Counted from the first letter of the stretch, positions 728-44,578 are shown. The stretch is 64,000 bases of DNA from a virus (IMGVR_UViG_3300013099_000017:64001-128000), one strand, 5' to 3'. Numbers and translations: made by a program. Notes: generated from the sequence alone by a model not told the origin.

Positions 728-728
728 T

Positions 729-773
729 ATATCCCATTGTGGGTATATACATTTACTGTAGATATCATATAAT
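729..773 (+). promoter_or_regulatory. Palindrome-class promoter cassette, copy 1
   Basis: ATATCC-CATTGT-GGGTAT, then TATAAT at 768. Confidence 0.8.
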
Positions 774-810
774 AAAGACATAAGATAAATTAATCCAAAA
801 GGAAAACATC

Positions 811-978
811 ATGAACACTCAACTTGTAGCAAGTCAACTAGAAAATGATTTAGCATATCAGCAGTCGGTTCAACAGAATGACCCATACAACATGATGTTG
901 GTGTTACGTGCATATCAACTTCCATACAAAATTACTGATGCAACGGCATTAATTGAATATGCCAAGGGTAAAAAATAA
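811..978 (+). CDS. 55-aa hypothetical protein, not in track (MNTQLVASQL...)
   Basis: CCAAAAGGAAA RBS, open frame, TAATG overlap with next gene. Confidence 0.7.
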   Translation: MNTQLVASQLENDLAYQQSVQQNDPYNMMLVLRAYQLPYKITDATALIEYAKGKK

Positions 979-1226
979 TGCCTATTACAACCAATAATCA
1001 TATTCGGGATTATCTTGATATTTCTGATGTTCCTGAATCTGAAATTGATGAATGGAATTCGGAATGTAGTTTATGGGTAAAATACAGGGGTATGTATCTT
1101 GCTCTTTCTGATTTTGGATATAATCCTTATTCGGAATGGTCTGCTACTTATGGTTTAACAAATACAGCATCAATTGTTCTTAAACCTATTGAAAGTGATC
1201 AATATATTATTGGTCTTGCAACATGA
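978..1226 (+). CDS. Hypothetical protein
   Basis: 82-aa ORF with TAATG overlap. Confidence 0.65.
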   Translation: MPITTNNHIRDYLDISDVPESEIDEWNSECSLWVKYRGMYLALSDFGYNPYSEWSATYGLTNTASIVLKPIESDQYIIGLAT

Positions 1227-1405
1227 ATTGGTTTGAAAAATTATTTGTAGCATTGGAAGTGTTAGCCATTATTGGTATGATTGTTTATTCTGTACTTCAA
1301 TTTTTTGGAATTGTATGATAATGGATATTGAAGAAATATTGGAAAAATTGTTTATCGTTTGTATTGTACTCCATGCAATTTACATGACATGTTTTTGAGA
1401 AAATT

Positions 1406-2222
1406 ATGAGCGTATATGACTTATTAAAAAAAGATTTAGATGAATTGATGGATCTCTGTCAATCAAAAAACATTTATGTTAGTTGGAATAAAAATTCAAT
1501 ATTTATTTGTGATTTAAATGGTGAGTTAATGTATCAGGGTGATGCACCACAAGAACCAATTAGCTATCAATTTCTAATGAAAAAAATTAAGGAAATTTTG
1601 TGAAATATAAGGTAAGTATTGAGAAAAAGTATCTTTATATTTGGAAAGCTAATAGGGAAAATCCTATATTAGAATTTTCTGTTTCAGAAAAAGGTATAAC
1701 GTTAATTGATGGTGATGTGAAAATTAAACAAGATTTTTATAGTCGTGAAGAAATCAAGAATTTAAAATATGAATTGGAGTTAATGAAATGACAAGTAAAG
1801 TATTATGTGCTTTAGGTGTTAAAGATGGTAAAACCGAATATCTTTATGATTTTTCATGGGATTGTGATTGGTATTGGGGTGGTGGTTATGTTGGTAATAA
1901 ACACTTACATCATCATTTTAATGGGTTAGTTGGTGGAAACATTAACATGCATGATGCGTTTGAAGAATATTATGATAGTACCAAAATAACAAAAGATCAA
2001 TTGTGGCGATTGTGTGATCTTATGAAACAATTTTATGCTCATAGAGAAAGTTCTGAATGTTTTCAATGGGGTGGCAATTATACATGTTCAGGTAGATCTC
2101 ATGAAGAAATTAATTCTGATTTGGGTAAAGCATTAAATGAACATATCGAAAAGGTCATTATTCCCGAAGTTCGGAAATTATTGAAAGATGTTGATACGCA
2201 GGAATCTGTAAAAATATCTTAA
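1406..2222 (+). other. Three overlapping small hypothetical ORFs (1406-1603, 1600-1791, 1788-2222)
   Basis: Coupled start/stop overlaps; no recognisable motifs. Confidence 0.65.
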
Positions 2223-2223
2223 T

Positions 2224-2269
2224 ATATCCCATTGTGGGTATATACATCTATTGTTAAATATAAGATAAT
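2224..2269 (+). promoter_or_regulatory. Palindrome-class promoter cassette, copy 2
   Basis: ATATCC-CATTGT-GGGTAT; TATACA-N17-GATAAT. Confidence 0.8.
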
Positions 2270-2274
2270 GTATT

Positions 2275-2319
2275 TGTGGTAAGGGGATTTCCCCAAATAG
2301 ATAAACTTCCAAAAGGAAA
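2275..2319 (+). promoter_or_regulatory. Conserved 5' leader (TGTGGT, GGGGA-loop-TCCCC hairpin, CTTCCAAAAGGAAA RBS)
   Basis: Near-identical leaders at 29770, 31237, 33104, 35026 and 37128. Confidence 0.75.
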
Positions 2320-2324
2320 ACACC

Positions 2325-2849
2325 ATGTATAATGGTAATTTTGAACAAGAATCTGAACAGGTCATTGAAAAATATGAACCGAAACTGAGAGTAATGTTTC
2401 CTGACTTTCATGTTAATATGAGAGTAAGTAAATTGCTTGGTACAACATTGTGGATTAATATATCTTCTCCGCATGAAATAACAAGACATAATGCAGATGT
2501 TAATATTGATTTTCATGTTTTCAATGAAGATCATGTTCCTTCATTAGAGAAAAATCTTTGTCCAAAAAAATATAAATTTCGTAAAATCAACGGTGATACC
2601 TTAGATGTTATGGTTGGTAAATTTATGGTTTGGATTGCAAAGAATGAATCTGAAATGAAATCCGATTGGGTTAATTATAAGGACAAGAAAATGAGTAAAT
2701 CAGATTATCAGGTGTATAAAAAAAATGGAAATCAATATGTCATTTATCAGGAATTTGATAAATGGAATATTTATCAACTTTCATGGTCTAGTGCTAATAA
2801 ATTAGTTTCTTCCCATGATACAAACGCAGAGGCGGTATCAGCATTATGA
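2325..2849 (+). CDS. Hypothetical early protein
   Basis: 174-aa ORF directly behind a full promoter/leader cassette. Confidence 0.75.
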   Translation: MYNGNFEQESEQVIEKYEPKLRVMFPDFHVNMRVSKLLGTTLWINISSPHEITRHNADVNIDFHVFNEDHVPSLEKNLCPKKYKFRKINGDTLDVMVGKFMVWIAKNESEMKSDWVNYKDKKMSKSDYQVYKKNGNQYVIYQEFDKWNIYQLSWSSANKLVSSHDTNAEAVSAL

Positions 2850-3291
2850 ACTTTTGTATTATGTACATTGCAAGAATCTCAAATGTAAGCAATGATTTTC
2901 AATATATATTTGTATCGAAACATCAAATAACACAAGATGATGTTATAACATATTTAAATTCCAAAGATGAAAGTTTGGATTTAGAAGTTAATCGCTTGGG
3001 TTTATATTCTAATTTACTTAATAAGTTTATTACTTATAAAGTTAATACCATTGAGGAAATTTAAAAATGAGTCCTACTAAAATTTTAAATATCGTAAATA
3101 AATTTGATAATCTATTTAAATTCTTTGGATATATTTTTATTGTTTGTATTTTAATGTTTACATTATATTTACTTGCAGTCAATATTCATTATGTTAGTGT
3201 ATTTGGTGTATTCTTGTTTTTACTATATGTATTGGTCAGATATATGGTTGCCTATTACAAGAAAAATAATCCGGATAGGAGAAATTCGTGA
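2846..3291 (+). other. Two small ORFs (2846-3064; 3067-3291, a membrane protein)
   Basis: Overlapping ORFs; the second has two hydrophobic stretches. Confidence 0.6.
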
Positions 3292-3662
3292 ATCAAACAG
3301 TAATCGGTCGTTTATATGGTATTGTTATTATGTTAATATTATTGGCAATGTCATTTGATTTGATGTACCCAAATGTGATTTTAGTTGGTGTATTATTTGC
3401 TGTTCGTGTTCTACTTATAGTTGATAATCTTAATAGAAATGATGTGAAAGATATATTAATTACTGATTTTAAAACAATAGGTTTATTATTGAATTTATTT
3501 GTTTTGATGTTAATATTATTTGGTTTTATTGAATTTTGGTACATATATGTAATATCACAATCAACTGTATTACTTTTTGGTGCAGTATGGTATTTGGAAA
3601 ATAAACCAGAAATACAGACATTATATCAACTAGCAATTTGGAAAAGGAATAGGGGAAGATGA
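3288..3662 (+). CDS. Multi-pass membrane protein, paralog A
   Basis: About four hydrophobic segments; FG.IEFWY...LFGAV shared with next ORF. Confidence 0.7.
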   Translation: MNQTVIGRLYGIVIMLILLAMSFDLMYPNVILVGVLFAVRVLLIVDNLNRNDVKDILITDFKTIGLLLNLFVLMLILFGFIEFWYIYVISQSTVLLFGAVWYLENKPEIQTLYQLAIWKRNRGR

Positions 3663-4018
3663 AAAAAAAAACGATTACAATTGTACGTTTAATTACAATA
3701 ACAATATATTTGATCATATTTGCAATGTCCTTTGGTTTAATAGAACTGAATGGATTGCTGGTAGCAAGTTTATTTATTGTTCAAATTTATATATTTTGTG
3801 GATTCATTAGTACATTAAATGCTCATGAATATGGTAATGTGCCGAAAGGTTGGTTATATTATTTGACTAACACTATTTCAGCTATATTAATATTGTTTAT
3901 GTTATTTGGACAAATAGAATTTTGGTACATGGTTATTTTGAGCCATATAATTTTATTTGGGGCGGTTATTGTATTTAAACGGAAAGCAGAACATGAATTA
4001 TTGGAGAGTAGAAAATGA
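3659..4018 (+). CDS. Multi-pass membrane protein, paralog B
   Basis: About four hydrophobic segments; FGQIEFWY...LFGAV. Confidence 0.7.
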   Translation: MKKKTITIVRLITITIYLIIFAMSFGLIELNGLLVASLFIVQIYIFCGFISTLNAHEYGNVPKGWLYYLTNTISAILILFMLFGQIEFWYMVILSHIILFGAVIVFKRKAEHELLESRK

Positions 4019-4956
4019 GTTATTGTGATTTTAATCATACGTTATTTAAACAGTTTACAAGTCATAAGACTAAGATATTTCCTGCTCTATCTGATGATTG
4101 GGAATTGATTAATAAAGCATATAACACAAGTGATGGTGTTGCGTTAAAGTCTAAAAATTTAAATCAAATTGTATATGATATTCCAATGAGGCGATTTATT
4201 ACATTTTGTAAAACATTTAATATTACCATAACAGGTAATCTTTTACATGGTGAATATGCCGTTGGTCAAGATAGATCAGTATATGTTAAAAAAGATTTTG
4301 ATAAGTGGAATGACAAATATAACAAACGTACAGAAAATATTATTTCTTTACGTGATGCTAAAGTAGGTCATGTTTATAGAACGGTGTGTGGATTGTCTGT
4401 AATTTATTTGGGTGCTATGTATCAGGCGAAAGTCATAACAAAAAAATGGGATGATTTATCAAATTTCACTAAAATTACAAAAGTTCATTTCATTCAAACA
4501 AATGTAAGTTTTGATGATGATAATCCTCAGTATGGAATACAACCTGTAAGAAATTATAAATTTATACGAGACATGGGTTATGCTTTGGATGCAGATGAAA
4601 TTGCTAATGTGTTTGAACATCAATATTACGGTGATAATAGCATCGTGTATTGGGATAAAAAACGTCCAAATGGTGTTCCAAAATACGGAATCATTCCAAG
4701 TATTAGAAAACCATATTATCCAAATCAGGATAATTATGCAAAGAAAAATGTGTCATTGTATTATTATACTCCATTATTTGCCAAATATCAGAATAGATTT
4801 TGGAAATTAAGGAATAGCACAACATTAAGATCATCTTATTCAGTTGATAAAGAAACGCTAAAATATTCTGGTAAAAATCAAGATCAAGGTTGGGGTTGTT
4901 CAGGGGAACAAATTAAAGTAGATAATGAATTTTATAGAATTGGTGTTATTGATTAA
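4015..4956 (+). CDS. Hypothetical protein
   Basis: 313-aa ORF; no motif recognised. Confidence 0.75.
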   Translation: MSYCDFNHTLFKQFTSHKTKIFPALSDDWELINKAYNTSDGVALKSKNLNQIVYDIPMRRFITFCKTFNITITGNLLHGEYAVGQDRSVYVKKDFDKWNDKYNKRTENIISLRDAKVGHVYRTVCGLSVIYLGAMYQAKVITKKWDDLSNFTKITKVHFIQTNVSFDDDNPQYGIQPVRNYKFIRDMGYALDADEIANVFEHQYYGDNSIVYWDKKRPNGVPKYGIIPSIRKPYYPNQDNYAKKNVSLYYYTPLFAKYQNRFWKLRNSTTLRSSYSVDKETLKYSGKNQDQGWGCSGEQIKVDNEFYRIGVID

Positions 4957-4957
4957 T

Positions 4958-5003
4958 ATATCCCATTGTGGGTATATACACAAATATTATATTATGTGAT
5001 AAT
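4958..5003 (+). promoter_or_regulatory. Palindrome-class promoter cassette, copy 3
   Basis: ATATCC-CATTGT-GGGTAT; TGT-GATAAT at 4998. Confidence 0.8.
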
Positions 5004-5038
5004 GGGTTCAAGATTAAATAAACAGGAAAGGAAATGAA

Positions 5039-5260
5039 ATGAAGTGGTGTAAAGATTCTTATTTTAAAGATTTAAGTGATGATGAATTGCTCATTGAATA
5101 TGATGATGCCCGTAGTTTGATGTCGTATTATAATGCGGCCGAAGGAAATTGGAGTAGTGAAACGGGTGCTCGAAATGAATGTAGTTATTATCTTAATGAA
5201 GTGAGAACTGAAATTGGTATTCGAGATTTGACCCCAAATACAGGAACTTATTTATGCTAA
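5039..5260 (+). CDS. Hypothetical protein
   Basis: 73-aa ORF with GGAAAGGA RBS. Confidence 0.65.
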   Translation: MKWCKDSYFKDLSDDELLIEYDDARSLMSYYNAAEGNWSSETGARNECSYYLNEVRTEIGIRDLTPNTGTYLC

Positions 5261-5284
5261 ATAAGCATAAAGGGGAATTTATAT

Positions 5285-5914
5285 ATGGAATTAAACAAAG
5301 ACTTTTTTCAAAGTTTAAATGAATCATTATTAACTGAATCGGGTTTATCAAGGGTTTGGAAACAAACAAAAGAACATGATTTTGGAACAATTACTGCTTT
5401 TCGTAGTGCCAAAGATTGCAATAAAGGTGAAGCATATACAAAAGCTGATAACATGAAACGAAATAAATCACTTGTTTCAAAATTACAGTCATTGCGATAT
5501 GGTATCACTAAAATCAAAGGTTCATATATTGAGAACTATGGTTCACAAAATGAAAAAGAAGTTGGTGAAAATTCGTTTATTGTAATTGATCTTCAAGACA
5601 AGGGTACATTGAAAAAAGATTTATTAAAATTGGGTGAAGAATTTGAACAAGATTCTATCATTTTTGGTAAAGCAGGAAAGGCAGGAACATTAGTTGGTTC
5701 AAATAAATGTCCTGATGGATATCCAGGATATCGTAAAGAAGCTAAACAAGGTGGTGCTATTTTTGGTAAAACTGGTGAATTTATGAGTCGGGTTAAAGGT
5801 AGACCATTTATTTTTACAGAAGAAGTTGAAAATTATGGTGTCAAAAAATATCCAACTGAGTTAAGGGGTGTAGTTGAATTATCAAAACTACATTGGTCTG
5901 AAATCGAAGTATAA
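5285..5914 (+). CDS. Conserved T4-like hypothetical protein, possibly virion-associated
   Basis: LNESLLTE N-terminus, SGLSRVW...GTITAFR motif, upstream CTAAATA late-promoter-like site. Confidence 0.6.
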   Translation: MELNKDFFQSLNESLLTESGLSRVWKQTKEHDFGTITAFRSAKDCNKGEAYTKADNMKRNKSLVSKLQSLRYGITKIKGSYIENYGSQNEKEVGENSFIVIDLQDKGTLKKDLLKLGEEFEQDSIIFGKAGKAGTLVGSNKCPDGYPGYRKEAKQGGAIFGKTGEFMSRVKGRPFIFTEEVENYGVKKYPTELRGVVELSKLHWSEIEV

Positions 5915-5925
5915 AGGTTTTTATT

Positions 5926-6783
5926 ATGCAATACATTTTAAAACAAATTGAATATGATGAATTAGTTCATTTAAAAGAAAAACACCAGAAACGTTACTTG
6001 AATGAACTTCAAAAAGTTTGTACAATGGCATGTGATAATACCCCAATTTTATATTGGGATAAAACAATTCCGGAACCTTGGGGTTGTATTATCACCATTG
6101 AAAAAGAAAATGAAGAAAATGGTACTGATGAAGAATGGTGTTGTGATGAATGTCCAACAATTAAAGTATGTCCTTATGAATACAAAACTTATAGTAAATA
6201 AAGGGTTTTTATAATGAGTGATGTTAAAACAATAATTCAACATTCTGTATTAGTTGTATTAGGTGAAAAAAATAATAAATTTTTATTTAATTCAAAAGAA
6301 GATAAAGATGAATTTTTATTAAGTGAAAATAAATTTTGTATTAATCAATTACAAAATTATATTGGTGCGTTTGATAAACTCGAACGCAAAACTTTCAAGT
6401 TTGAACTTGAAAAAAAGCGTATGGCTCATGCTGTACATTGTGGATTTCATGAAGTTGCCAATACAGGTACATGGAATCGTTCTGCAAATTATGACGCATT
6501 AATTGCGTAAAGGTGTTAAATTATGAGTAAAGATTATAAAGTTGGTATTCGTTTCCCTAATAAAAACGATGAAAAGTACAGATTAGGGTATATCTTTTTG
6601 CCGACCGAAGTAAAACGTGATGCTTATATTCGTGATGAATTGGAATTCTGCAAAAGTGAAGAAAAATCCTATTTAAGTGCGTTATATAAAAATCAGCGTC
6701 TTAGTTCTATTCAGGCATTATACAATAAGCGTATTGAATTTGCGAAATTGAATGGTTTGGATATTGAAATGGTTAAGGCATAA
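5926..6783 (+). other. Three small hypothetical ORFs (5926-6201, 6214-6510, 6523-6783)
   Basis: Each preceded by an AAGG-type RBS. Confidence 0.6.
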
Positions 6784-7370
6784 TGCTCAATGTTATGGTA
6801 GACAATGAATCGGTTGGATTGAAACCAAATTCAGCCGTTGCACAAATTGGAGCAGTAATTTTTCAAGATGATTTTACAATCATGGATCGATATTGTATAA
6901 ATTTAAATATTGATCAACAGTTGGATTTGGGTTCAACTTATGATGATGGAACTCTCGATTGGTGGATGCTTCAAGAAGATGAAAATTCTGATTTATATAA
7001 TTCGGTTTTTGATAATCCAATGAACTTAGATGGTGCTTATAAAAATTGGTCAACATGGTTAAAGGATAATTCCCCTGTAAATGATGTTGGATTTAGATTT
7101 TGGTGTAATCATTTATTATTCGATGTACCAATGTTAAATAATTTCATGTCGTATTATGATGATAATATGAAACATTATATCAAATATAATAATTTTGAAG
7201 ATTTTGCAACTGTCCGAAATATGGCAAAACGTAAAGTAAGCAATTTTAAGGTACTTGAAAATAAAATTAATGTGGATGCTAATGGTGCTAGTCATAATGC
7301 CTTGTATGATGCTGTTTGGCAGACTAAATCATTAGAATTATCATATAAAGTGCTGGACATTCAATTATAA
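6783..7370 (+). CDS. dexA: DEDDh 3'-5' exonuclease, DexA-like
   Basis: N-terminal VMVDNES, internal FDVPML, C-terminal HNALYDA. Confidence 0.8.
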   Translation: MLNVMVDNESVGLKPNSAVAQIGAVIFQDDFTIMDRYCINLNIDQQLDLGSTYDDGTLDWWMLQEDENSDLYNSVFDNPMNLDGAYKNWSTWLKDNSPVNDVGFRFWCNHLLFDVPMLNNFMSYYDDNMKHYIKYNNFEDFATVRNMAKRKVSNFKVLENKINVDANGASHNALYDAVWQTKSLELSYKVLDIQL

Positions 7371-7424
7371 TATTTCATATATCTCTTTTGGGATATATGA
7401 AATATTTAATCAATTTGATATAAT
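7370..7424 (+). promoter_or_regulatory. Palindrome-class promoter cassette, copy 4, with extended 14-bp perfect arms
   Basis: ATATTTCATATATC-N8-GATATATGAAATAT; TGA-TATAAT at 7419. Confidence 0.8.
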
Positions 7425-7458
7425 ATGTGTGTAGGTTGAAAAACCATTTTTAAATTTG

Positions 7459-7486
7459 AATAGGTAATAGGTAATAGGTAATAAGT
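7459..7486 (+). repeat. AATAGGT x3 plus AATAAGT tandem repeat over the RBS
   Basis: Read directly upstream of ATG 7488. Confidence 0.85.
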
Positions 7487-7487
7487 A

Positions 7488-8489
7488 ATGAAACGGACAA
7501 CAGATGTAAATCATGCAATGTATGGTAAAGAACCATCTATTCCAAATCAGGTATTTATGGATACGAAAGCATATAATATGTTTTTACATTCATCCTTTAA
7601 CTGGTACAATAACATGGTTAAAGATACCGAAAAAAAGAAATGGGTCATTAAATGGGGTATTGCCCGTGGATTCAATATATCAGATTTGAAAGCAATTCCG
7701 GATACTTATTTAACTACTCTTGGTTCAATGGTGAGAATGGATGATAATGGTTTCAAATTTAATGATATGCATTATCAAACAATTTCAACTAAATTAGGTG
7801 AATTGGTATTAAAGTTCAAAGAAATCAAACGTGAACAGCCTACAATAAAAAAGATTACAGTTGATAAGGTTGGTTTGGTTATGACTGTTTTTGATAATGC
7901 TATTGATAACGTTATGGACAATAAACCATATCCAAAATTAACAATCGATCATCCATTATCAGCACCAAATGTCAATGAACTGAAATCATATTATACAAGA
8001 CAGTTGGATGAACTTGAAACTGGTTCAAAATTTATTAAAGTTCATAATGAGATTTTAAATTTATTATCTGGTAAAGATAAAGTTAAAAAGCCCACAACAC
8101 GAAAACCTAAAATTAGGAAAGCACGTTCTCCTAAAAAGCAGGTGGCTAACTTGAACTTTATGATTGCTGATACTACATTAGGAATCAAATCCATTAAACC
8201 GGAAAAAATAATTGGTGCTTCTAAGTTGGTGATGTTTAATACCAATAATCGAAAGTTGACTATTTTCTATGCTGATGATGGTGGATTTTCTATCAAGGGT
8301 TCAACCTTGCAGAATTTTACAAAACAATCTTCCACTAAAACTATCAGGAAACCGGAAGATAAATTATCTGAATTTATTGGAGCACCAAAAACACGTACAG
8401 ATAAAATTTATTCTCAAATTAAATCGGTCAAGGGTTCGGTAACTGGTCGAATTAATAAACACAATATATTACTAAAGGTATTTAATTAA
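7488..8489 (+). CDS. Conserved T4-like hypothetical protein
   Basis: C-terminal FNTNNRKL...SIKGSTLQNF...KTIRKPE...GRINK resembles a family recalled from marine T4-like phages. Confidence 0.7.
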   Translation: MKRTTDVNHAMYGKEPSIPNQVFMDTKAYNMFLHSSFNWYNNMVKDTEKKKWVIKWGIARGFNISDLKAIPDTYLTTLGSMVRMDDNGFKFNDMHYQTISTKLGELVLKFKEIKREQPTIKKITVDKVGLVMTVFDNAIDNVMDNKPYPKLTIDHPLSAPNVNELKSYYTRQLDELETGSKFIKVHNEILNLLSGKDKVKKPTTRKPKIRKARSPKKQVANLNFMIADTTLGIKSIKPEKIIGASKLVMFNTNNRKLTIFYADDGGFSIKGSTLQNFTKQSSTKTIRKPEDKLSEFIGAPKTRTDKIYSQIKSVKGSVTGRINKHNILLKVFN

Positions 8490-8785
8490 TGAATCCATTT
8501 AAAGTAACATTGAAAGTAGAGAAACCCGATCCAACATATTCATTTGATGAATTGGGTCATAGGAGTATTGGTCGGATTCAGCGTGGGAAATACAAGGGAT
8601 TATTTGTTCTTGTGATTAAAGAAGATGTAAATGAACCAATATTAGTTGAACTAACTGGATTGTTTTATCTAAAAGGTAAACAATTAAAAGAGTTTGGTTC
8701 AAATATCGAAGCACTTAATGTTGATTATAATATAACATTATCATTATCACGTATACCAGAATCAGAAAGGATTAACTTAAAATGA
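8489..8785 (+). CDS. Small hypothetical protein, distant paralog of the next two ORFs
   Basis: Similar length and G.I...KY.GL.V pattern. Confidence 0.6.
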   Translation: MNPFKVTLKVEKPDPTYSFDELGHRSIGRIQRGKYKGLFVLVIKEDVNEPILVELTGLFYLKGKQLKEFGSNIEALNVDYNITLSLSRIPESERINLK

Positions 8786-9028
8786 TTGAAATTGTAAATG
8801 AACAAAAAGATGTAATAGTCTTAGCAAAAGATATGAAACAAGGTCAATTTGGTGTTATTGTTGAAAGTGAAGCTCAATATCTGATAGGTGATATTGTAGG
8901 GGGAACAATTGATTTCTTTAAATGGTAAAAACACATGGAAAAATCTTTCTCTGCCACAATTTAAAATTAAACTTTTGCATGATGGTACTATTTTTAAACT
9001 TACTAATAATGGAATTAAAAATGCTTAA
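8782..9028 (+). pseudogene. Small ORF frameshifted at a G5 run (8899-8903)
   Basis: Frame 1 stops after FFKW; the +1 frame continues GEQLISLNGKNTW..., which aligns with GELIVSLTSTHSW of the next ORF. Confidence 0.55.
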
Positions 9029-9290
9029 ACTTATAAAAGGTTCTGATCCGAAATACATTAAGGCAACTGAAATGACTATTAATCAAGTTGCCATTATCCG
9101 AAATAATAAAGATGATGATGTTGATCAAAAATATGTTGGTTTGATTGTTATGCGAGTTTATGGTGAACTGATTGTATCTTTAACTTCAACTCATTCATGG
9201 GGTGGAAATTGTCGTAGTTTAAATGCTCTTACTTTTAATCTCGAAGTAATACCAAATGGAAGTATGTTTGAAGTTGTGAATAATGAATAA
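9021..9290 (+). CDS. Small hypothetical protein (start MLKLIKG)
   Basis: In-frame ATG with GGA upstream; paralog of 8782. Confidence 0.65.
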   Translation: MLKLIKGSDPKYIKATEMTINQVAIIRNNKDDDVDQKYVGLIVMRVYGELIVSLTSTHSWGGNCRSLNALTFNLEVIPNGSMFEVVNNE

Positions 9291-9299
9291 GGATGTTAA

Positions 9300-10148
9300 A
9301 TGTTATTAATTGATTTAAGTTCGGTTGTAATAAATGCCGTACAGGGTGCAATTATACAAAATGATCTTAGTTTATCATTGGTTCGTAATTGTACCATGTC
9401 TCAGTTACTATATTACAAAAAACGATATTCAAAATATGGTAAGCCAATTTTATGTGTAGATTCAAGACACTATTGGCGTAAAGATTTTTTTAAATTTTAT
9501 AAACAAAATCGAAAAAAGATCCGTAAAAAATCCAGCATGGATTGGGACTTGTTTTTTGAATATTTTGCCAAAGTAAAACAGGAACTTCAAGACTATGTTC
9601 CATATATGTATATTGATGTTGAAAAATGTGAAGCTGATGATATCATTGCCATTATTGCAATGAAATCATCTGAGCCTGTTATGATTGTATCTGCTGATAA
9701 AGATATGGCACAATTACAAACCAAAGGGAAGGATATTAAGCAATATTCACCAATGACCAAAAAACAAATTACATTGAAGTCATTAGATTATTCATTAATT
9801 GAACATATTATTCGTGGTGATAATTCAGATGGTATTCCAAATATTAAATCCGATGATGATGTATTTTTATGTGAAGATAAAAGACAGAAATCAATTACCA
9901 CCACATTAATTAAAGATGCTTTACTTTTGGAACGTACCGAATTAATATGTCAAAATCAAATCGAATTGGGAAAATTTAAACGAAATCAAATCTTAATTGA
10001 TGTTGCTCATATTCCCGAAAATTATAAAAAAGATATTAGGGATGCTTGGAAATTTCAACAAGATAATCCACCAAAAGATAAATTAAAAACATATTTTATT
10101 AAATTTAGAATGAAATTATTATTTAATAAAATAAGCCAATTTAGATAA
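9300..10148 (+). CDS. rnh: T4-type RNase H / 5'-3' exonuclease
   Basis: MLLID, YWRK.F..YK..RKK, EADDII, SADKD..QL, GD.SDGIPN motifs. Confidence 0.95.
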   Translation: MLLIDLSSVVINAVQGAIIQNDLSLSLVRNCTMSQLLYYKKRYSKYGKPILCVDSRHYWRKDFFKFYKQNRKKIRKKSSMDWDLFFEYFAKVKQELQDYVPYMYIDVEKCEADDIIAIIAMKSSEPVMIVSADKDMAQLQTKGKDIKQYSPMTKKQITLKSLDYSLIEHIIRGDNSDGIPNIKSDDDVFLCEDKRQKSITTTLIKDALLLERTELICQNQIELGKFKRNQILIDVAHIPENYKKDIRDAWKFQQDNPPKDKLKTYFIKFRMKLLFNKISQFR

Positions 10149-10189
10149 GAACTAAATAGAATCATAATAGTAATTAAGGATGAAATATT

Positions 10190-10594
10190 ATGAAAACTTT
10201 AACGTTAGATTTTTTAAATTGTATTTACAATGGCGAAGGAACATGCAGAACACCAACAGAACAAATGATAAAAGATCCGGTCTTTGCTGGATATGCTCAA
10301 TTAGCTTATTCAGATAAAGTACCAACATATAAGATTATACCTGTACATAAACGTGATCCGAGAACTCCATTAGGTTTGGACTTTTCAAATTTACAAATGT
10401 CATTCAGGAAATTTTATCAAGGTGCATATGTTATTAATGATAATAAAATATCAAGACGTATACTGATTCAAGTTGCAGAAGCATTATCTCAGGTGGAAGT
10501 AAAATTTTTACGTGAAGTATTAAAAGGTAAAATTGGATTTTACTCAAAGCAACAATATTTACTTGATATGGATAGTGCTAATGCCGACATATGA
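10190..10594 (+). CDS. Conserved T4-like protein following rnh
   Basis: ILIQVAEALS..EVKFL resembles the usual rnh neighbour; ACTAAATA upstream. Confidence 0.6.
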   Translation: MKTLTLDFLNCIYNGEGTCRTPTEQMIKDPVFAGYAQLAYSDKVPTYKIIPVHKRDPRTPLGLDFSNLQMSFRKFYQGAYVINDNKISRRILIQVAEALSQVEVKFLREVLKGKIGFYSKQQYLLDMDSANADI

Positions 10595-10829
10595 TTATAA
10601 ATGCAATGAGTGTGGATATTATTTTGAAACATCTTCACCAATGGCAGAAAGACATAATCCAAAATGTTGTCCCAAATGTGGAGCATATGAAAGTAAGCAA
10701 GTCATTACACGGGGCAATGCTGTTTTGGATTCAGTAAGAATGGGTAGAACTAAAGTATCAGAAGGATTTAGGGATACTTTAATCGACATTAAAAAAGAGC
10801 ATCCAGGCTCAACAATTAAAATAAGATAA
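10581..10829 (+). CDS. FmdB-family zinc-ribbon protein
   Basis: MPTYDYKCNECG...CPKCG. Confidence 0.85.
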   Translation: MPTYDYKCNECGYYFETSSPMAERHNPKCCPKCGAYESKQVITRGNAVLDSVRMGRTKVSEGFRDTLIDIKKEHPGSTIKIR

Positions 10830-10840
10830 AGGAATATATA

Positions 10841-12244
10841 ATGAATAAACAAGATGTGTTAGATATAGAACGGTTAAAAGTTGATCGGTTAATTACTTTA
10901 CATGATATTGAATCAAATGAAGAAGAAATAAAACGACTTAAAACTCTTAGTGATCATGATGGGGAATTTTATGAAGAAATGGCTTTAAAATATTCTCAAT
11001 TAGATTTAAAACAAATTGATTTGGATATTGCTAACATTCTGCGTAATTATCCAACAGAGTAATTATATCTCTTAATGGGTATATACATATATATCCATTT
11101 GCTGTATTATTTAGAAAAACTTCCAAAAGGAAAAATATAATGAAAGATCATCCTATTACTTCAAAATGGGTTCAAGAAAATTTTAACATTGATGATGAAC
11201 GTCAAATTCTCAGAGAATTGGATTATTCCGGTGATTTTGTAGATTTGATTGAAGCAGATGTTGGTGATGGTGTATCTATTTCTGAATTTATTGAAATTGT
11301 TAAATCATCATTAAAAGGTCATGATTTTGTGTCCTTTAATGAAATTCGATATTCCGGAACCACATTAGATTTATCAAAATGGGTATCTGCTACTGAAACT
11401 GATAATCAAGTTATTGATCGATTAAAAGTTGAAGAACGGGCAAAACGCAAAGTCATTAAACAGGAAGAACAAGATCGTGTTGATTATGAACGATTGAAAC
11501 TCAGATTTGAACCGAAATCAATAACCAAAGTAAATTTGGATTTACTTGAATGTAGTCAATGTCGATTGGGTAAAAATTATTTAAATCTTTGTGATTTAAC
11601 ACATCCTGAATTTACTGAGTGCTTAGAATATGTTAATAATCATGAGGATTTATAAATGAGAAAACTAGTACCGTCTTATTGGTGGGATTTTGGAAAAGAT
11701 GGTTTTATCATTGTTGAAAGTGATGAAAATGATTTTCCTATTCTTGGTGAATTTGAATATGATGTAAAAGGCTATGCCGATCAAGCCATAAACCAAGCAC
11801 TAAAATTAATTAATGATCTTCGTTCCGGAAGAATTACACCAAAGGAGTGTATTAAAAATGGTTAAAAGTTATGAAAAGTATGATAATCTATTACCATACC
11901 CAAAATTAAAAAATCAAGCGTTTCCTGAACCAAAACGAAAAGATTTTGTTAGTTATACAGAACATGGTATAGCTATGGATGACTGGGAACGAAATCGCTG
12001 TACATATGATGTTGAACGGAAGAAATTGATAAAAGAATATCAAGATGAACAATCTCGAATGATTGCTTTGTTTTTTGATGATTTAATGAGTGAACTTGAT
12101 TGGGATGTTTTACCCAAAGAAAAAATTGATAAATTAAAATCTCATATTTGGGAAGAAGGACATCATGCAGGTTTTCCGGAATGTTATAACGTTGCTTATG
12201 ATATGGTAGAATTGGTTGATGTATTAATTAAAGGATGTAAATAA
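10841..12244 (+). other. Four hypothetical ORFs (10841-11062, 11140-11655, 11656-11865, ~11858-12244)
   Basis: Coupled ORFs with RBSs. Confidence 0.6.
11065..11110 (+). promoter_or_regulatory. Palindrome-class promoter cassette, copy 5
   Basis: ATATCT-CTTAAT-GGGTAT; TATTAT at 11105; CTTCCAAAAGGAAA RBS. Confidence 0.75.
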
Positions 12245-13284
12245 TGTTTAAATTTAAAAAATATGATAAAATTACTAATAGTTATGATGGTAAACATGTT
12301 CGTGCAGTAAAAATGGCTATGCTTGAACAAAACATAGAAGATGTGTGGATTGTTACTGAAAAAATTCATGGTGCTAATTTTGCATGTTATGTAAAGCCCA
12401 ATGAAGATTATATGGATGATACTCCATATTCAATTCAATATGCTTCACGTAATAACTTGTTAAGTGAATCTGAATCCGATGCTTTTTATAATTTCCAGTC
12501 TATTAAAGCAGACGTTAGTGAAAAAGTAAAAGAACTTTATAAAAATATATATGATGGTGATACTGCTGATGTTGATGAAATTATTGTTTATGGTGAATTA
12601 TTTGGTGGTTCATATGATCATCCTGATGTTGAACGTGTAAATCAATCACGGGTACAAAAAGGTGTCATGTATTGTCCGGATTTACATTTCAAGGCGTTTG
12701 ATATTTTTATACGTTATAATGATGGTGATGAAATGTATATGAATCCTGCGTTTTTTAATAAAATTTGTTTTGATGTGGGTGTTGATTATATTCCTGCAAA
12801 ATTGATTGGGACGTTGGATGAATGTTTATCTTATCAAAATGATTTTAATTCTTTGATTTATGTTGATTATGATTTACCTGATGTTGGTGAAAATACATGT
12901 GAGGGTGTTGTCATTAAACCCATATATCCATTTTATGACAATCGTGGCAATCGTGCTATTTTCAAGAACAAAAATGATAAATTCAAAGAAGTTGCAGGCG
13001 AACGTAAAAATAAAGTTACACAACCAATTGAATTATCGGATAAAGATAAAGAACATTTTGAATTGGTTGAACGTTATACCACAATGAATCGTTTGAATAA
13101 TCTTGAATCTAAAATTGGTGAACTTGAAGAAGCTAAACAAATTGGTGAATTCATGAAAGGTATGTGTGTTGATGTTAATGAAGATATCAAATTTGAACTG
13201 GATGTTTTATTAACTAAACGTGCCAAAGGTCATTTAATTAAAATGGTCAAAACTTTAATTATGGAAAAGTTATACAACACTTGA
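12244..13284 (+). CDS. rnlB: RNA ligase 2 (Rnl2 family)
   Basis: Motif I TEKIHGANF, YGELFGG, FKAFDI, EGVVIKP, FKNKNDKFKE. Confidence 0.93.
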   Translation: MFKFKKYDKITNSYDGKHVRAVKMAMLEQNIEDVWIVTEKIHGANFACYVKPNEDYMDDTPYSIQYASRNNLLSESESDAFYNFQSIKADVSEKVKELYKNIYDGDTADVDEIIVYGELFGGSYDHPDVERVNQSRVQKGVMYCPDLHFKAFDIFIRYNDGDEMYMNPAFFNKICFDVGVDYIPAKLIGTLDECLSYQNDFNSLIYVDYDLPDVGENTCEGVVIKPIYPFYDNRGNRAIFKNKNDKFKEVAGERKNKVTQPIELSDKDKEHFELVERYTTMNRLNNLESKIGELEEAKQIGEFMKGMCVDVNEDIKFELDVLLTKRAKGHLIKMVKTLIMEKLYNT

Positions 13285-13322
13285 TCTAGATCAATGTAAG
13301 TTGGTATAACTTATGAGATACT
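13281..13322 (+). promoter_or_regulatory. FNR-box promoter, copy A
   Basis: TTGAT-CTAG-ATCAA, 22 nt, then TGA-GATACT extended -10. Confidence 0.65.
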
Positions 13323-13328
13323 AAATTT

Positions 13329-13395: not shown

Positions 13396-13413
13396 CTTTA
13401 AGGAATATATATA

Positions 13414-32098: not shown

Positions 32099-32144
32099 AT
32101 ACCCATTAAGAGATATATAAATTATTTTTTAAGTATGTAATAAT
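32099..32144 (+). promoter_or_regulatory. Palindrome-class promoter cassette, copy 10 (exact reverse complement of copy 5; overlaps the end of the upstream ORF)
   Basis: ATACCC-ATTAAG-AGATAT; TGT-AATAAT at 32139; CTTCCAAAAGGAAA RBS. Confidence 0.7.
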
Positions 32145-33052: not shown

Positions 33053-33148
33053 ATATCCCATTGTGGGTATATACATTCATTAACTAATATAAGATAATAT
33101 ATTTGTGGTTGGGGGAAGTCTCCCAAAAGATAAATTTTCAAAAGGAAA
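33053..33148 (+). promoter_or_regulatory. Palindrome-class promoter cassette, copy 11, with conserved leader
   Basis: ATATCC-CATTGT-GGGTAT; GATAAT at 33093. Confidence 0.8.
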
Positions 33149-33153
33149 TAATT

Positions 33154-33465: not shown

Positions 33466-34989
33466 TGAGAGATCCAAGTTTTTATGGTCATTTAAAGTCA
33501 TAACAACATTTCCAAGTGGAATGAAAAGTTCCACTTGGTTTTATAATTATAGACTTCTTAAAAAATATAAGAAATCAGTTCGTAAATTTGAACCTGATTC
33601 AAAAATTGTAGTATTTCCGTATAGTGAATAGGAAGATTAAATATGTTTGAAGTTGATGGAATAAAAGTATCAAATAAAGATGGTGCATTGATAAAAAGAG
33701 CCATGAAGGAATTTGGAAAACAATTAAGTTCTGGTATAATTACCCATAATGGAAAAGAAAAAAATAAAATTAAATTAATTCAGCAATGTGCAAAAATCAT
33801 TGATAAATTTAATTATGATGCTTTTGGAAACCAAGCATCATATATGGCATCATATAGAATATTTTACAAATACGCAGATAAACCCGATATGGAACCATTA
33901 TATGCAGATATGCGTTCATCATCAAAAGAAGGTGCTGTTGATGAATTTTATATATGGTATTGGGATGGTGAGCGCATTGTTAATAATAAAGAAATAGAAA
34001 TTGTTGGTTTGGGGTAATTAATATGTTTGATTTTTTTTGGAAAATTATTATCTATTGGAAATGATGTGGCATTAACACCAAAACATTATCGGGGTTTAGT
34101 TCTTGGTAAAGTGGTTGGTTTTACCCCAAAACAAGTTATATGCAATACTGGAAATATTGAAGGAATGAAAAAGTTTCTAATCTTAATAACAGAAATGACA
34201 TTTATTTTAATTATTGCCATTATTGAAGCAATTTGGAAAAAGTTTAACAAAAATCTTAGAATAGATATTGAAGGAATTGATTGATGAAATTACAAGCACC
34301 AAAATTGCCACTTAAATATCGTGCCGATTTTATGTTACGATATAAAGAAATATTAGATCAGAAATTATCATTTGAAGGTGCTGAGAATGGTATATTTTAT
34401 TTTAAAGGATTGATACAAATATCCGGTAAAATGTTAGAAGCTGAAATGAATGTTGCCTGTACAGATATGAGTGATTTATATTTGAACCCCATTGAATCAA
34501 TTAAAAATCTATTGGATTTTGAATATATTGATTTATTTATTGATGATGTATATTGTTTAAGGATACAATAATGAAAACTAAATGGAAATCTATTGCTTAT
34601 TGGGATAAAGGGGTAAGTACCGGAAATAGTAAAAACGTATCAGTTGATACACATAGCACCGAAGAAATGGCTCAGGCTGTTGCTGATGCATTATTAATTG
34701 AGGGTTTGGGTGGTGAACGTAAAATTTTCCCAATAAAAACCAGAGTTGAAAAGGTTATTATCTTATGAAAAGAACTATTGTTTCAGAAATTCAACCTGAA
34801 TATGCAGTTTCTTATTATTCAATAAAAAAACATGGTAATAGTGGAGCAGGATTTTATTTACATAAAACAGATGATCCGGATAATGGATATTGTGAATTAG
34901 AATTAGTGGAAATGGGTGCTTCTCCTAAAACTGTTCGTGAGTTAAGGGAAGTTGCAAGTATTGAAGTATTTGGTAAACCCTTGATCTAG
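33465..34989 (+). other. Run of small hypothetical ORFs; one appears frameshifted at T8 (34031-34038)
   Basis: ATG 34023 (MFDFF) joins GKLLSIGNDVA only if the run is T7. Confidence 0.55.
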
Positions 34990-35070
34990 ATCAATGTTAT
35001 TTTATCCAAGTTTGATAAACTATATATGTGGTTGGGGAATGATCCCCAAAAGATAAATTTTCAAAAGGAA
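34981..35070 (+). promoter_or_regulatory. FNR-box promoter, copy C, with conserved leader
   Basis: TTGATCTAGATCAA, ~20 nt, TGA-TAAACT; GGGGA-loop-TCCCC leader. Confidence 0.7.
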
Positions 35071-37076: not shown

Positions 37077-37171
37077 ACACCCACAATGGGATATATACAT
37101 TTTAATCTAATTATCGGATAATATACATGTGGTCGGGGAAATCCCCATTTAGAAAAACTTCCAAAAGGAAA
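37077..37171 (+). promoter_or_regulatory. Palindrome-class promoter cassette, copy 12 (inverted), with conserved leader
   Basis: ACACCC-ACAATG-GGATAT; GATAAT at 37117; GGGGAAATCCCC. Confidence 0.8.
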
Positions 37172-37176
37172 AGAAA

Positions 37177-41098: not shown

Positions 41099-41144
41099 AT
41101 ATCCACAATGGGATATATACCAATGTATCCCATTGTGTGATAAT
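41099..41144 (+). promoter_or_regulatory. Palindrome-class promoter cassette, copy 13 (perfect arms)
   Basis: ATATCC-ACAATG-GGATAT; second degenerate site at 41125-41142; TGT-GATAAT at 41139. Confidence 0.8.
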
Positions 41145-41181: not shown

Positions 41182-42508
41182 ATGAGTCGTTCTGTCAGTT
41201 ATCCTAATAATGCTAGTGTTGTCTGTTATATTGATGTGAGTTATATGGAAGATTCCGATGAATGGAATGATTTCATGGATTCATTAAAATATGTTATTTT
41301 AACAAAATATAAATCTTTTGAAGATGATGATCATTATATTGGTCGGGAATTAACTTCTGTTTTATCAAACCAACATGCTCAAATTGTGGTATCTGAATAT
41401 TGTGGATTAGCAAGCGTTTCTCTTGCTCCAATTGAATTTGATGGTTATGGTGAAGATTCGAGTTTACAAAATATTGCTAATGCATGGTGTAATTTGGTAT
41501 CTGATAACTTCAAAAAATTAATTGATAAACATTTTAATTCTTTAAATAAAGTTGCAACATTCAGCAATGGTGAATCTATGTATGAGTATGCATCATGAAA
41601 ATATATCAACTAACAAGTGAAAATTTTGATGAAGGTTGTGGTACTTTTACTTATATTATAAGCACTTCAAAAAACAAAAAACAACTTGAATCTGTTGCCA
41701 AAAAATTAAATGATTTATATGAAACTAATTATCAACATTATTATGTAAATAATGTTGATGTTAAAGATTCTTTAACACATGATGAAATTGAACAAATAAT
41801 CAAACAAATATTGGAGCCATAAAAATGTCATATCTATTACAAAAAAGAAATGAAAGTTGTGTTGAATATGCTTTGATTAATCAACATCCAATTGATTTTT
41901 TCAGACAATTATTTTTTACTAATGGCAATGGTATTGAGATTAGTAATGGTAATCCAGTTGAAGTCGTTAATTATGGACGGACTATCCCTTGGATAGAATA
42001 TTATAAAGAAGAAACCACATTAGATGATATTAAAGATTATTTTGTTGATTATAAACTTGAACGCAAAGTTCAAGAAACTCAAAAAATGATTCGTGGTATG
42101 GATTCTTATAGCAATATATATAAGGATGCTCTTGCTGAATTGGATGATATTTATGAATTGAGTGATAATGAAATCACAAATAGTCATTTTTGGTTAAATA
42201 AATTATTAGATGAAAAGGGTAATTTTTATCCATATTTGTCATTATCTGATGGTTATTTTAAATTGCAACAAATTAATGAAAATACAGAACCATTATTATT
42301 GGATGTTGCAATAGCGGTTACGTCTGCATATGTATCATTTTTTGCTTATGTGAAAATAAATAAAACTTTCATTGAAGAATATAAATCAATTATTTCATTT
42401 AGATGGAATGTTGAAACTCTCGAAAGATGTTATAATACATCTATGGATGATTTGGAAATGTTGCGAAAAGAATTTAAACGTTTATTGAAACTTAAAATGG
42501 ATAGATAA
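41182..42508 (+). other. Three hypothetical ORFs (41182-41598, 41595-41822, 41825-42508)
   Basis: Behind cassette 13. Confidence 0.65.
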
Positions 42509-43164
42509 TGAAAACCTTAATTTGTTATAGTGGTGGATTTGATTCAACTGCTTTATTATTGAATGAGTTACAGAATGGTTATCATGTTGATACTTGTTAT
42601 TTTGAATTGCCAAATAATACAGGTGCTCAATCAATTGAATTGAAAAATCGTAAAAAGATTTTAAAGTATGTATCCAAAATAACAAAAGATCCTGAAATGT
42701 CAGGAACTTTGGGAAATGATGTTGTTTATAATTTATATACTAAATTTGATAATCGGGTATATTTACATCTTCAACAAGCATACCTATGGATACAATTTTT
42801 AATATTGAAAGTTGATTTAAGTAAATATGATCGAGTTGTTTTTGGTTATGTGAAATATGATGATTTTTGGCATTTTAAAAATGAATTTATTGAGTTATAT
42901 AATTCATCCGTAAAATTAACTGTACATAAAAACACACCAAAATTGGTATATCCTTTTGAGTGGTGTACTAAAAAAGATGTTTTAAAATGGTATGATACGG
43001 AAAATTTTTACAATAAAAATGTATCCAAATATATTAAAAAAATAGAAAAATTAACGTTTTATTGTGAAACTCCGGTTGATGGTAAAGCATGTAAAAAATG
43101 TGATTCATGTAAACGACATAAAAGTGAGATTGGAAATGAACAGAAAAGAATTAATATTAACTAA
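42508..43164 (+). CDS. queC: QueC-like PP-loop ATPase (7-cyano-7-deazaguanine synthase family)
   Basis: CYSGGFDST; C-terminal C(x8)C(x2)C(x2)C in YCETPVDGKACKKCDSC. Confidence 0.75.
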   Translation: MKTLICYSGGFDSTALLLNELQNGYHVDTCYFELPNNTGAQSIELKNRKKILKYVSKITKDPEMSGTLGNDVVYNLYTKFDNRVYLHLQQAYLWIQFLILKVDLSKYDRVVFGYVKYDDFWHFKNEFIELYNSSVKLTVHKNTPKLVYPFEWCTKKDVLKWYDTENFYNKNVSKYIKKIEKLTFYCETPVDGKACKKCDSCKRHKSEIGNEQKRININ

Positions 43165-43169
43165 TATAC

Positions 43170-43198
43170 TTGACATGGTATCTAATTTCTTATATTAT
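43170..43198 (+). promoter_or_regulatory. Sigma70 promoter for RNA ligase 1
   Basis: TTGACA-N17-TATTAT. Confidence 0.65.
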
Positions 43199-43283
43199 AA
43201 TACAATAAATAATATTTATTAAAAACATAAATAAATTGTGGTGTTTCCATGCAGTTATTTATATTACATTAGGATTTAAACTT

Positions 43284-44225
43284 ATGAAAATTCCAACAAA
43301 GGAATTTATTGAAAATAATAGAAAGATGGTGAAATTGAAGCCAACACCATATGATAATGTGTTTGTGTTGAAATATACTCCAAAAGTATTTTATAATTAT
43401 TGGTGGGATAAAGATGATTCGTTAATTGAATGTCGTGGGACTTTGGTCGATAAAGATTTAAATATCGTATCAAGACCATATACAAAAATCTTCAATCATA
43501 ATGAAAAGTTTGCACCAAAATTTGATGATGATGAAATTGTTTTAGTTGCTGATAAAATCAATGGCTTTATGTGTGCGGTTACTTGGCACAATGATATGGT
43601 TTTGGTTTCCACAACTGGTACAACTGATTCAGATTTTGCAAAGGTTGCAAGAGAAGAAGTAATGAAGGTCACGAATGAAACTCTATTTAAAGACCATTCA
43701 GATTATACTTTCATCTTTGAAGTTTGTACAAAAGAAGATAGACATATCATTGAAGAAGATTTGGGTGTTTATTTATTGGATGTTAGACTGAAAAAATGGG
43801 ATACACCTAATATTGGTTTGGGGTCAAGTGAAATAGCTTGTTTGAGATTGACAACACAATATCGTAATGAAGATAATTTCAATGATAGCTTTAAATTACC
43901 TAAACATTGGATGTATAAGTTTGGTGAACTTGAATCAATTTTGAAAACATATAAGCGTGAAGGTTTTGTTGTGACAAGTTTGGATAGAACCCGACAAGTT
44001 AAAATGAAATCCCCATATTATTTAACATCAAAATTTTTGGCTAAATTGAATAATGATAATGTTGAATTGTTGTTATCAAATCCACAAAAATGTAAAGCAC
44101 GAATTGATGAAGAATTTTATCCAATTGTGGATTATTTAAATGAAAATTTAGATCATTTTAAAACGTTGGATAATTTCGATAAAGCAATGTATGTTCAGGC
44201 ATACTTCGATGGAGAAGAAACATGA
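43284..44225 (+). CDS. rnlA: RNA ligase 1 (Rnl1 family)
   Basis: ECRG, PYTKIFN..E, DKING, EGFVV, VKMKSP.YL. Confidence 0.88.
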   Translation: MKIPTKEFIENNRKMVKLKPTPYDNVFVLKYTPKVFYNYWWDKDDSLIECRGTLVDKDLNIVSRPYTKIFNHNEKFAPKFDDDEIVLVADKINGFMCAVTWHNDMVLVSTTGTTDSDFAKVAREEVMKVTNETLFKDHSDYTFIFEVCTKEDRHIIEEDLGVYLLDVRLKKWDTPNIGLGSSEIACLRLTTQYRNEDNFNDSFKLPKHWMYKFGELESILKTYKREGFVVTSLDRTRQVKMKSPYYLTSKFLAKLNNDNVELLLSNPQKCKARIDEEFYPIVDYLNENLDHFKTLDNFDKAMYVQAYFDGEET

Positions 44226-44533
44226 GAAAAGAAAAAGATGATAGTTATTTTATTAATAGAATGAGTTCATTTGGGGAATGGGTGTGGCGATTATATATTA
44301 TTGAAGTTTTCCGTGATGGTGATGGGGTTTCATTTATTTTTAATAAATATCATCCACTTTCATATATAATGTTCTTGGTTAGTATATTAGATGTATTTTG
44401 GATCAGTGGTGCAGATGGTGTAAAAGAAGAATGGAAAGATAATCAATTGGGTTGGGATTTTACAAAGTATTGGAAAAAACCGGAAAATAAAATACGGTAT
44501 ATTCCAAGACCAGATATATATTTTTATACATAA

Positions 44534-44578
44534 GTATCCACAATGGGATATATTAATTATCATTGTATATGATATACT
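44534..44578 (+). promoter_or_regulatory. Palindrome-class promoter cassette, copy 14 (inverted)
   Basis: GTATCC-ACAATG-GGATAT; TGA-TATACT at 44573. Confidence 0.8.

Follow-up and report, generated by a model that had tools for sequence, protein, structure and literature searches.

A position-locked 18-bp dyad as the predicted operator module of mobile promoter cassettes in an uncultured T4-like phage

The 64,000-nucleotide stretch IMGVR_UViG_3300013099_000017:64001-128000 (hereafter the window; it covers bases 64001-128000 in an IMG/VR virus record of 144,243 bp and 79% completeness) carries repeated copies of an 18-bp dyad, ATAYCY-N6-RGRTAT, each at a set distance upstream of a rightward promoter. 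By its gene content the source virus is an uncultured T4-like phage. The dyad, which spans 22 bp with its AT flanks, is best explained as the upstream operator module of mobile promoter cassettes resembling the promoter-early stem-loops (PeSLs) of T4-type phages, and as the predicted site of a two-fold symmetric protein, a reading to which we give slightly better than even odds (about 0.55). Such a DNA-binding protein would occupy the dyad at about -54 to -33 and contact the weak -35 (TATACA) of a promoter whose -10 is of the sigma-70 type (TG-extended in 16 of 26); since it would touch that -35 at about 26 promoters, a single factor could simultaneously govern how active about 26 accessory-gene operons are.

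All fourteen sites named in the initial annotation of the window are present. Eleven match the pattern exactly (729, 2224, 4958, 7379, 11065, 16224, 24210, 31186, 32099, 33053 and 41099) where 0.06 would be expected, a number reached by none of 100 shuffled sequences, and three (29425, 37077, 44534) carry a single arm mismatch. The whole record contains 23 exact sites, against one for a reversed control pattern. The scan of the genome and its relatives that the annotation had suggested recovered 26 copies in the record that are followed by a rightward promoter, and 17 more in related contigs; the consensus of these 43 copies is ATATATCCCATTnTGGGTATAT, with C and G tracts set within AT-rich arms and AT flanks that extend the two-fold symmetry to 22 bp. 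The spacing proved as fixed as had been proposed: in the window the -10 hexamer begins 23 nt past the 18-mer in twelve copies and 22 nt past it in two (729, 44534), so that the dyad centre precedes the -10 by 31.5 or 30.5 nt. Record-wide the offset is 23 in 24/26 copies and 22 in the other two. The spacer within the dyad occurs in both orientations, as CATTGT or ACAATG and as CTTAAT (11065) or ATTAAG (32099), while the promoters still all point rightward. The remaining particulars of the annotation also held. In 17 of 25 copies in the record the distance between the upstream stop codon and the dyad is -1 to 2 nt, no promoter-linked copy occurs at 46.7-64 kb, and the weak -35-like hexamer overlaps the dyad, starting on its last T, reading TATACA in 11/26 copies and never containing TTG. 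The dyads of the window and the elements that follow them, in window coordinates and with all promoters rightward, are:

729-746: dyad ATATCCCATTGTGGGTAT, forward type; -35-like hexamer from 746, -10 TATAAT at 768-773, first gene from 811.
2224-2241: dyad, forward type; -35-like TATACA at 2241-2246, -10 GATAAT at 2264-2269, gene from 2325.
4958-4975: dyad, forward type; -10 GATAAT at 4998-5003 with a TG in front of it, gene from 5039.
7379-7396: dyad ATATCTCTTTTGGGATAT; -10 TATAAT at 7419-7424, gene from 7488; the ortholog at L099:1874 is ATACCCATTTTGGGGTAT.
11065-11082: dyad ATATCTCTTAATGGGTAT; -10 TATTAT at 11105-11110, gene from 11140.
16224-16241: dyad ATACCCACAATGGGATAT, flipped type; -10 TATAAT at 16264-16269, gene from 16290; the ortholog at L099:10678 is oriented alike.
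24210-24227: dyad ATATCTCTTTTGGGATAT; -10 GATAAT at 24250-24255, gene from 24292.
29425-29442: dyad ATATCCCATTGTGAGTAT, one arm mismatch; -10 GATAAT at 29465-29470, gene from 29519.
31186-31203: dyad ATATCCCATTGTAGGTAT; -10 GATACT at 31226-31231, gene from 31288.
32099-32116: dyad ATACCCATTAAGAGATAT, which is the 11065 type flipped; -10 AATAAT at 32139-32144, gene from 32184.
33053-33070: dyad, forward type, overlapping the upstream stop codon; -10 GATAAT at 33093-33098, likely start codon at 33154.
37077-37094: dyad ACACCCACAATGGGATAT, of the flipped type and with one mismatch; -10 GATAAT at 37117-37122, gene from 37177.
41099-41116: dyad ATATCCACAATGGGATAT; -10 GATAAT at 41139-41144, gene from 41182.
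41126-41137: partial second copy TATCCCATTGTG, set between -35 and -10 in the 41099 promoter, its centre 26 bp past that of the first copy.
44534-44551: dyad GTATCCACAATGGGATAT, of the flipped type and with one mismatch; -10 TATACT at 44573-44578, gene from 44607.

Whether the dyad is conserved for its own sake was judged from 43 cassettes, 26 from the source phage and 17 contributed by nine related contigs from metagenomes, their G+C content being about 30%. Conservation extends over positions 1-23 and peaks at C5, C6, G13 and G14, whose 2.0-2.6 bits exceed the -10; information then drops to about 0 bits at positions 24-33, the 10 nt past the dyad and ATACA, and rises again at the extended -10. 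Moreover, the contig L099, syntenic with window 5237-20747 at 70-80% nucleotide identity, keeps dyads at orthologous places. Simple recent copying cannot explain this pattern. Copying itself has clearly occurred, since 9 of the 26 source-phage copies carry an identical 18-mer, and it is this identity that would be expected if the palindrome were a functionless passenger of cassette duplication and homogenisation. Such an origin is nevertheless improbable, given that no part of the cassette is better conserved than the dyad whereas the 10 nt beyond it and ATACA are unconserved, that it persists in relatives with no more than 70-80% identity in their coding DNA, and that 24 distinct 18-mers all hold the arm consensus.

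The same alignment bears on whether selection acts on DNA or on an RNA hairpin. The dyad is able to fold, with a mean free energy (dG) of -6.2 compared with -1.1 in shuffled sequences, and this energy hardly depends on the strand (-6.2 and -5.9). Pairing covariation was sought across the 43 cassettes and was absent: 85.5% of cells were paired compared with 85.2% in shuffles, and 223 of 500 shuffles reached the observed value. At pair 4-15 there are 16 Watson-Crick, 19 T.G and 8 C.A combinations, where independence predicts 20 Watson-Crick pairs. No T tract was seen after the dyad, with 1-3 T within the next 8 nt in 33/43 copies, so that the G+C-rich stem followed by a T tract that characterises an intrinsic terminator is not found here, and a terminator scan of window positions 1-20000 called none of the five dyads that this part holds. 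Without covariation or a T tract, with equal strand energies and at a fixed position, the dyad behaves as a sequence-specific DNA site, independent of orientation and locked in position to its promoter, rather than as a terminator or an RNA hairpin. The proposal in the initial annotation of a site for a dimeric protein thus stands insofar as the dyad is conserved, position-locked and used in either orientation, as the site of a two-fold symmetric protein would be; that a protein binds, which protein this is and whether it activates or represses are things we infer.

The cassettes themselves belong to a known type, although the annotation had regarded their architecture as undescribed. PeSLs have been reported from the T4-type phages RB49/phi1, T4/PST and KVP40/nt-1 (PMC2839356, PMC4122927); the stem-loop lies just upstream of the promoter in PST and nt-1 (PMC4122927), and its position varies in RB49/phi1, giving five subclasses (PMC2839356). 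Like PeSLs, the units described here are intergenic cassettes of about 100 bp in the accessory regions of a T4-like phage, in which an upstream stop codon is followed by an inverted repeat just 5' of a sigma-70-like promoter, a Shine-Dalgarno sequence and ATG. They are likewise tied to orphan genes and to replacements between relatives, one of which is marked by the cassette itself: the upstream module differs between L099:7810 and window 13281 while the flanking genes are orthologous. In contrast to PeSLs, the phage repeat is A/T-rich with a CC/GG core, lacks a T tract and pairing covariation, can be replaced by an FNR-type box and has arms that match a bacterial operator consensus; and whereas the RB49/phi1 stem-loops fall into five positional subclasses, the dyad sits at one exact position. 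What is new is not the cassette but the evidence that its majority module is a position-locked DNA-level site, together with the exchange for an FNR box at an orthologous locus and the likeness to CsoR operators. Regions of KVP40 that were checked for PeSL geometry contained almost no PeSLs.

This kinship brings with it the alternative that the dyad is a PeSL stem-loop acting structurally and without a dedicated protein, by terminating or attenuating read-through, by stabilising the 3' end of the upstream mRNA or as a crossover point for cassettes. In RB49/phi1 the stem-loop terminates transcription; a PeSL stem-loop cut lacZ expression as strongly as rrnB T1 does, and crossovers map to the loop (PMC2839356), results that count against a protein site. 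The matching layout from stop codon to ATG (PMC4122927), the favourable folding energy and the closeness of the dyad to the stop codon fit the same explanation, as do the partial second copies, which resemble recombination scars. We consider it unlikely all the same. In addition to the missing covariation and T tract and the negative terminator scan of window 1-20000, the transcribed strand has almost as many C.A mismatches as G.U pairs; none of the structural roles needs an exact 23-nt distance to the -10; the position is fixed, unlike that of the RB49/phi1 stem-loops; and the FNR-type box that occupies the same slot folds only weakly (dG -1.4 to -5.2). As for the second copies, the partial dyad at 41126-41137 is probably a recombination scar. 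Further partial or second dyads occur at G000:58013-58025 and L099:1900-1916, and each of the three has its centre some 17.5 nt ahead of the start site and 26 bp past the main copy; they resemble products of unequal exchange between the ATTGTG of the dyad and similar bases ahead of the -10.

A dyad-headed cassette is an intergenic unit of about 60-105 nt that runs from the stop codon through the dyad, ATACA, an unconserved spacer and an extended -10, often to a GGGGA...TCCCC hairpin, and then to the leader AAACTTCCAAAAGGAAA and ATG. Its promoter is sigma-70-like by sequence, with a -35-like hexamer that matches in at most 4/6 positions, a 17-nt spacer and a -10 that matches in 4-6/6, and the genes directly behind the dyads are orphans or of unassigned function. 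In a second class of cassette the slot of the dyad is filled by an FNR-type box, TTGATCTAGATCAA, centred 28.5 nt before the -10, with -35 scores of 0-2/6; promoters of a third class lack the dyad and have a perfect TTGACA. Six cassettes contain FNR-type boxes that are perfect or nearly so (window 13281-13294, 29723-29736 and 34981-34994; G000:46894, 48553 and 50563). At one orthologous locus a dyad at L099:7810 stands where the window has the FNR-type box at 13281, with a similar extended -10 in both, and this exchange identifies the slot upstream of the -35 as a swappable input module. The phage also encodes Dam-type methyltransferases, and each FNR-type box contains two GATC sites. A terminator-like hairpin with a T run lies at window 13366-13397, in the leader of the 13281 promoter ahead of the ribosome-binding site, and may be an attenuator.

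The annotation had likened the geometry of the dyad to that of the FNR-box class. The likeness extends to the slot, for class II FNR/CRP sites (TTGAT-N4-ATCAA, -41.5) are also two-fold sites that overlap or abut the -35, and it is this slot that the FNR-type boxes fill in the phage; it does not extend to the exact position, the dyad centre being 3 bp further upstream (31.5 compared with 28.5 nt before the -10), or to the arms, which are unrelated. A positional parallel is offered by phage Mu, whose Mor protein binds a dyad centred at -43.5 (PMC4390567). By the inferred start site the dyad of the present phage is centred at about -43.5/-42.5 and abuts a poor -35, just as the Mor/C sites combine a dyad at -43.5 with a usable -10 and a poor -35, an arrangement through which promoters of an entire temporal class are switched by one dimeric factor (PMC4390567). 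The two sets of sites differ in that their sequences are unrelated, that no Mor/C-family gene was found in the phage and that the phage has far more copies.

One form of the operator reading follows from this geometry, namely that a dimeric class II-type activator, of phage or host origin, recruits RNA polymerase to the poor -35 as Mor and C do in Mu, and so defines a delayed-early or middle class of promoters in a phage that lacks MotA and AsiA. The documented Mor geometry (PMC4390567), the position of the dyad against a -35 that never contains TTG, the sharing and exchange of its slot with FNR-type boxes at a class II position and the failure to find AsiA or the MotA C-terminal domain (MotCF) in the record all point towards activation, and one small protein with a Sigma70_r4-like match, P0001, is at hand. 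We regard this form as rather doubtful, however, because no Mor/C-family gene was found; P0001, an orphan, has a single distant relative and did not turn up in the related contigs; many dyad promoters have an extended -10; and each dyad is followed first by an orphan accessory gene, a kind that is expressed early in T4-type phages.

Other features point towards repression: arms that resemble those of CsoR operators, an extended -10 in many promoters, and the spacer of the gp55 promoter, which a dyad-like copy fills. The annotation had not recognised the motif as a known host operator, but its arms equal the type-2 consensus of the CsoR/CstR family, ATATACCC...GGGTATAT (PMC3902906, PMC5057107, PMC8643695). 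The Streptomyces CsoR operator is ATATACCCCTNAGGGGTATAT, in which TAC-X9-GTA is essential (PMC3902906); the Bradyrhizobium box is TATACCC-N5-GGGTATA and the Corynebacterium boxes are likewise of type 2 (PMC5057107), and the cst operator bound by CstR of S. mitis is a further example (PMC8643695). Shared with these operators are the arms ATATACCC and GGGTATAT, as they read, flanks included, in the relatives, the C and G tracts that face an unconserved spacer, the AT flanks and the two-fold symmetry. A scan of prokaryotes, with one genome per species, returned at least 80 loci with ATATACCC-N6-GGGTATAT. In 17-18 of the 80 listed a frame of the CsoR family, recognised with a hidden Markov model (HMM) built from PF02583 matches, lay at or beside the site, and PF02583 was by far the commonest family flanking the listed loci (11 of 82 open reading frames (ORFs), compared with 2 for the runner-up). 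The spacing seen in the phage is thus a real, if minor, form of CsoR operator. About a quarter of the listed genomes with this pattern (L209-L279) belong to Chitinophagaceae or Ferruginibacter, where there is no CsoR gene nearby, no recurring neighbour and a single copy per locus. Literature searches for CsoR in connection with phage promoters gave nothing relevant, and searches with 11- to 15-mers of the motif gave only unrelated primer sequences.

Accordingly, the bound protein could be a host CsoR/CstR-family tetramer, a sensor of Cu(I) or persulfide, that represses the cassettes by covering the -35 and the DNA upstream of it and releases them on a host signal, unless the copies serve instead to soak up the host repressor. 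This form of the reading is possible but doubtful. The identity of the 8-bp arms to the published consensus and the CsoR-family genes at or next to N6-spaced sites argue for it, and 4 of the 43 phage-lineage copies fit ATATACCC-N6-GGGTATAT exactly. The promoter of gp55, the late sigma factor (G000:24426-24454, outside the window; = L076:5426-5454), also has a csoR layout: TTGACA, 17 nt and TATATT, with the spacer filled by a dyad-like ATATCCCATTCGTGGTAT whose right arm doubles as the -10, as in autoregulated bacterial csoR promoters. Several features, however, weigh against a CsoR-type protein. Across 30 CsoR loci from Gammaproteobacteria, 22 of the dyad sites found have N9 and 2 have N10, with TAC and GTA invariant, whereas all 43 phage-lineage copies read TAY-N10-RTA, 1 bp longer than the usual CsoR box. 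TAC and GTA occur together in none of the 26 source-phage copies and in 8 of the 17 copies in relatives. Conservation is reversed, the phage keeping CC/GG best and not the C of TAC, and the dyad lies upstream of the -35 whereas CsoR boxes are usually inside the core promoter. The phage differs further in having about 26 copies spread across its genome and no cognate PF02583 protein that could be found in it or in the related contigs, and the family was present in only 66 of 301 sampled Gammaproteobacteria. The fit being incomplete in its N10 spacing, its degenerate TAC/GTA and its upstream position, we refrain from classing the dyad with the CsoR operators and keep the family as the best concrete lead.

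The search for the binding protein itself also weighs on the operator reading as a whole. As the annotation had noted, no ordinary helix-turn-helix (HTH) regulator is visible in the window by Pfam, and among about 250 ORFs of the record Pfam detected no HTH regulator except for a sub-threshold Sigma70_r4 match in P0001. Direct searches of the 79%-complete record revealed no Mor, AsiA, MotCF, HTH_3 or CsoR-family gene, the Mor/C family PF08765 giving no match at E <= 1, and an IMG/VR search for phage-encoded CsoR relatives returned 8 loci. These negatives, the incompleteness of the record and the fact that the 16 of 26 promoters with a TG-extended -10 might need no activator at all stand against a dedicated operator protein. 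Since no regulator was detected, the factor would be a host protein, be encoded in the missing 21% or belong to an unrecognised family. A phage-made repressor that shuts off early promoters is a further form of the operator reading, one that we judge quite unlikely; a phage-encoded binder of any kind would represent a new class of regulator, because no known DNA-binding family was detected.

Two phage proteins were considered individually. P0001 (G000:47339-47632; L077:9339-9632), a 98-aa orphan encoded by the second gene behind an FNR-box cassette, is the sole HTH-like protein detected in the record, and its Atlas matches are small phage Sigma70_r4 proteins; its single relative is distant, with none in IMG/VR, and it is a weak lead as a candidate binder of the dyad. 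P0003 (window 13767-14165) was tried as a phage CsoR on account of a weak PF02583 match (14.3-14.8 bits) and rejected: it was the top match of the purpose-built HMM only at E 0.67, had no sequence match in the PDB and no support in the Atlas, and its low-confidence model (predicted local distance difference test score, pLDDT, 63) shows a helical hairpin with a beta domain. A 207,615-bp contig encodes proteins identical to both P0001 and P0003.

The record, of about 29% G+C, has almost all of its genes pointing rightward, and its T4-type content comprises an intein-containing gp41-type helicase, Rnl2, DNA ligase, ribonucleotide reductase (RNR), gp55, gp45, gp33, RNase H and clamp-loader genes. 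The helicase is nearest to those of marine cyanophages and of the OM43 phage Melnitz; a search of a phage collection found no close relative of the source phage, and the relative G001 (138.6 kb, 45% G+C, ligase 47% identical) is without the dyad motif. The helicase intein is of the LAGLIDADG type (window 47056-49425), and another intein lies in the RNR large subunit (62405-64000). Several further sequence features accompany the promoters. About 40% of cassettes have the GGGGA...TCCCC hairpin, just past the presumed start (e.g. window 2277-2320, 31240-31283, 33105-33150 and 37130-37172), and in the leader that follows it the ribosome-binding site can pair as TTCC/GGAA, the record holding 20 exact copies of TTCCAAAAGGAAA. 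A tandem repeat of TAGGTAA, in about four copies, occupies window 7455-7487 and is directly followed by the start codon (7488). Over 100 bp of a promoter region, with two overlapping TTGACA boxes ahead of a single TATAAT, are duplicated (window 23400-23580 and G000:134650-134800), the second copy lying upstream of a gene for a SegE-like GIY-YIG endonuclease.

If the dyad is a protein site, the comparison with PeSLs suggests that some PeSL stem-loops may themselves be protein sites and not terminators. More speculatively, a lytic T4-like phage may wire its shuffled accessory cassettes to sensors of the host through interchangeable modules, one of the CsoR/CstR type (copper or persulfide) and one of the FNR type (oxygen). 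Were this so, the redox and metal state of the infected cell would decide which counter-defence or takeover genes fire, and if the binder is a host CsoR-family sensor, a lytic phage would be reading the copper or sulfide status of its host. Marine T4-like phages are not known to carry MotA or AsiA, neither of which was found here, and such phages raise the question of how early and middle transcription is ordered or conditioned. One position-locked operator that is common to about 26 promoters and can be exchanged for an FNR box would make that question testable with a single oligonucleotide.

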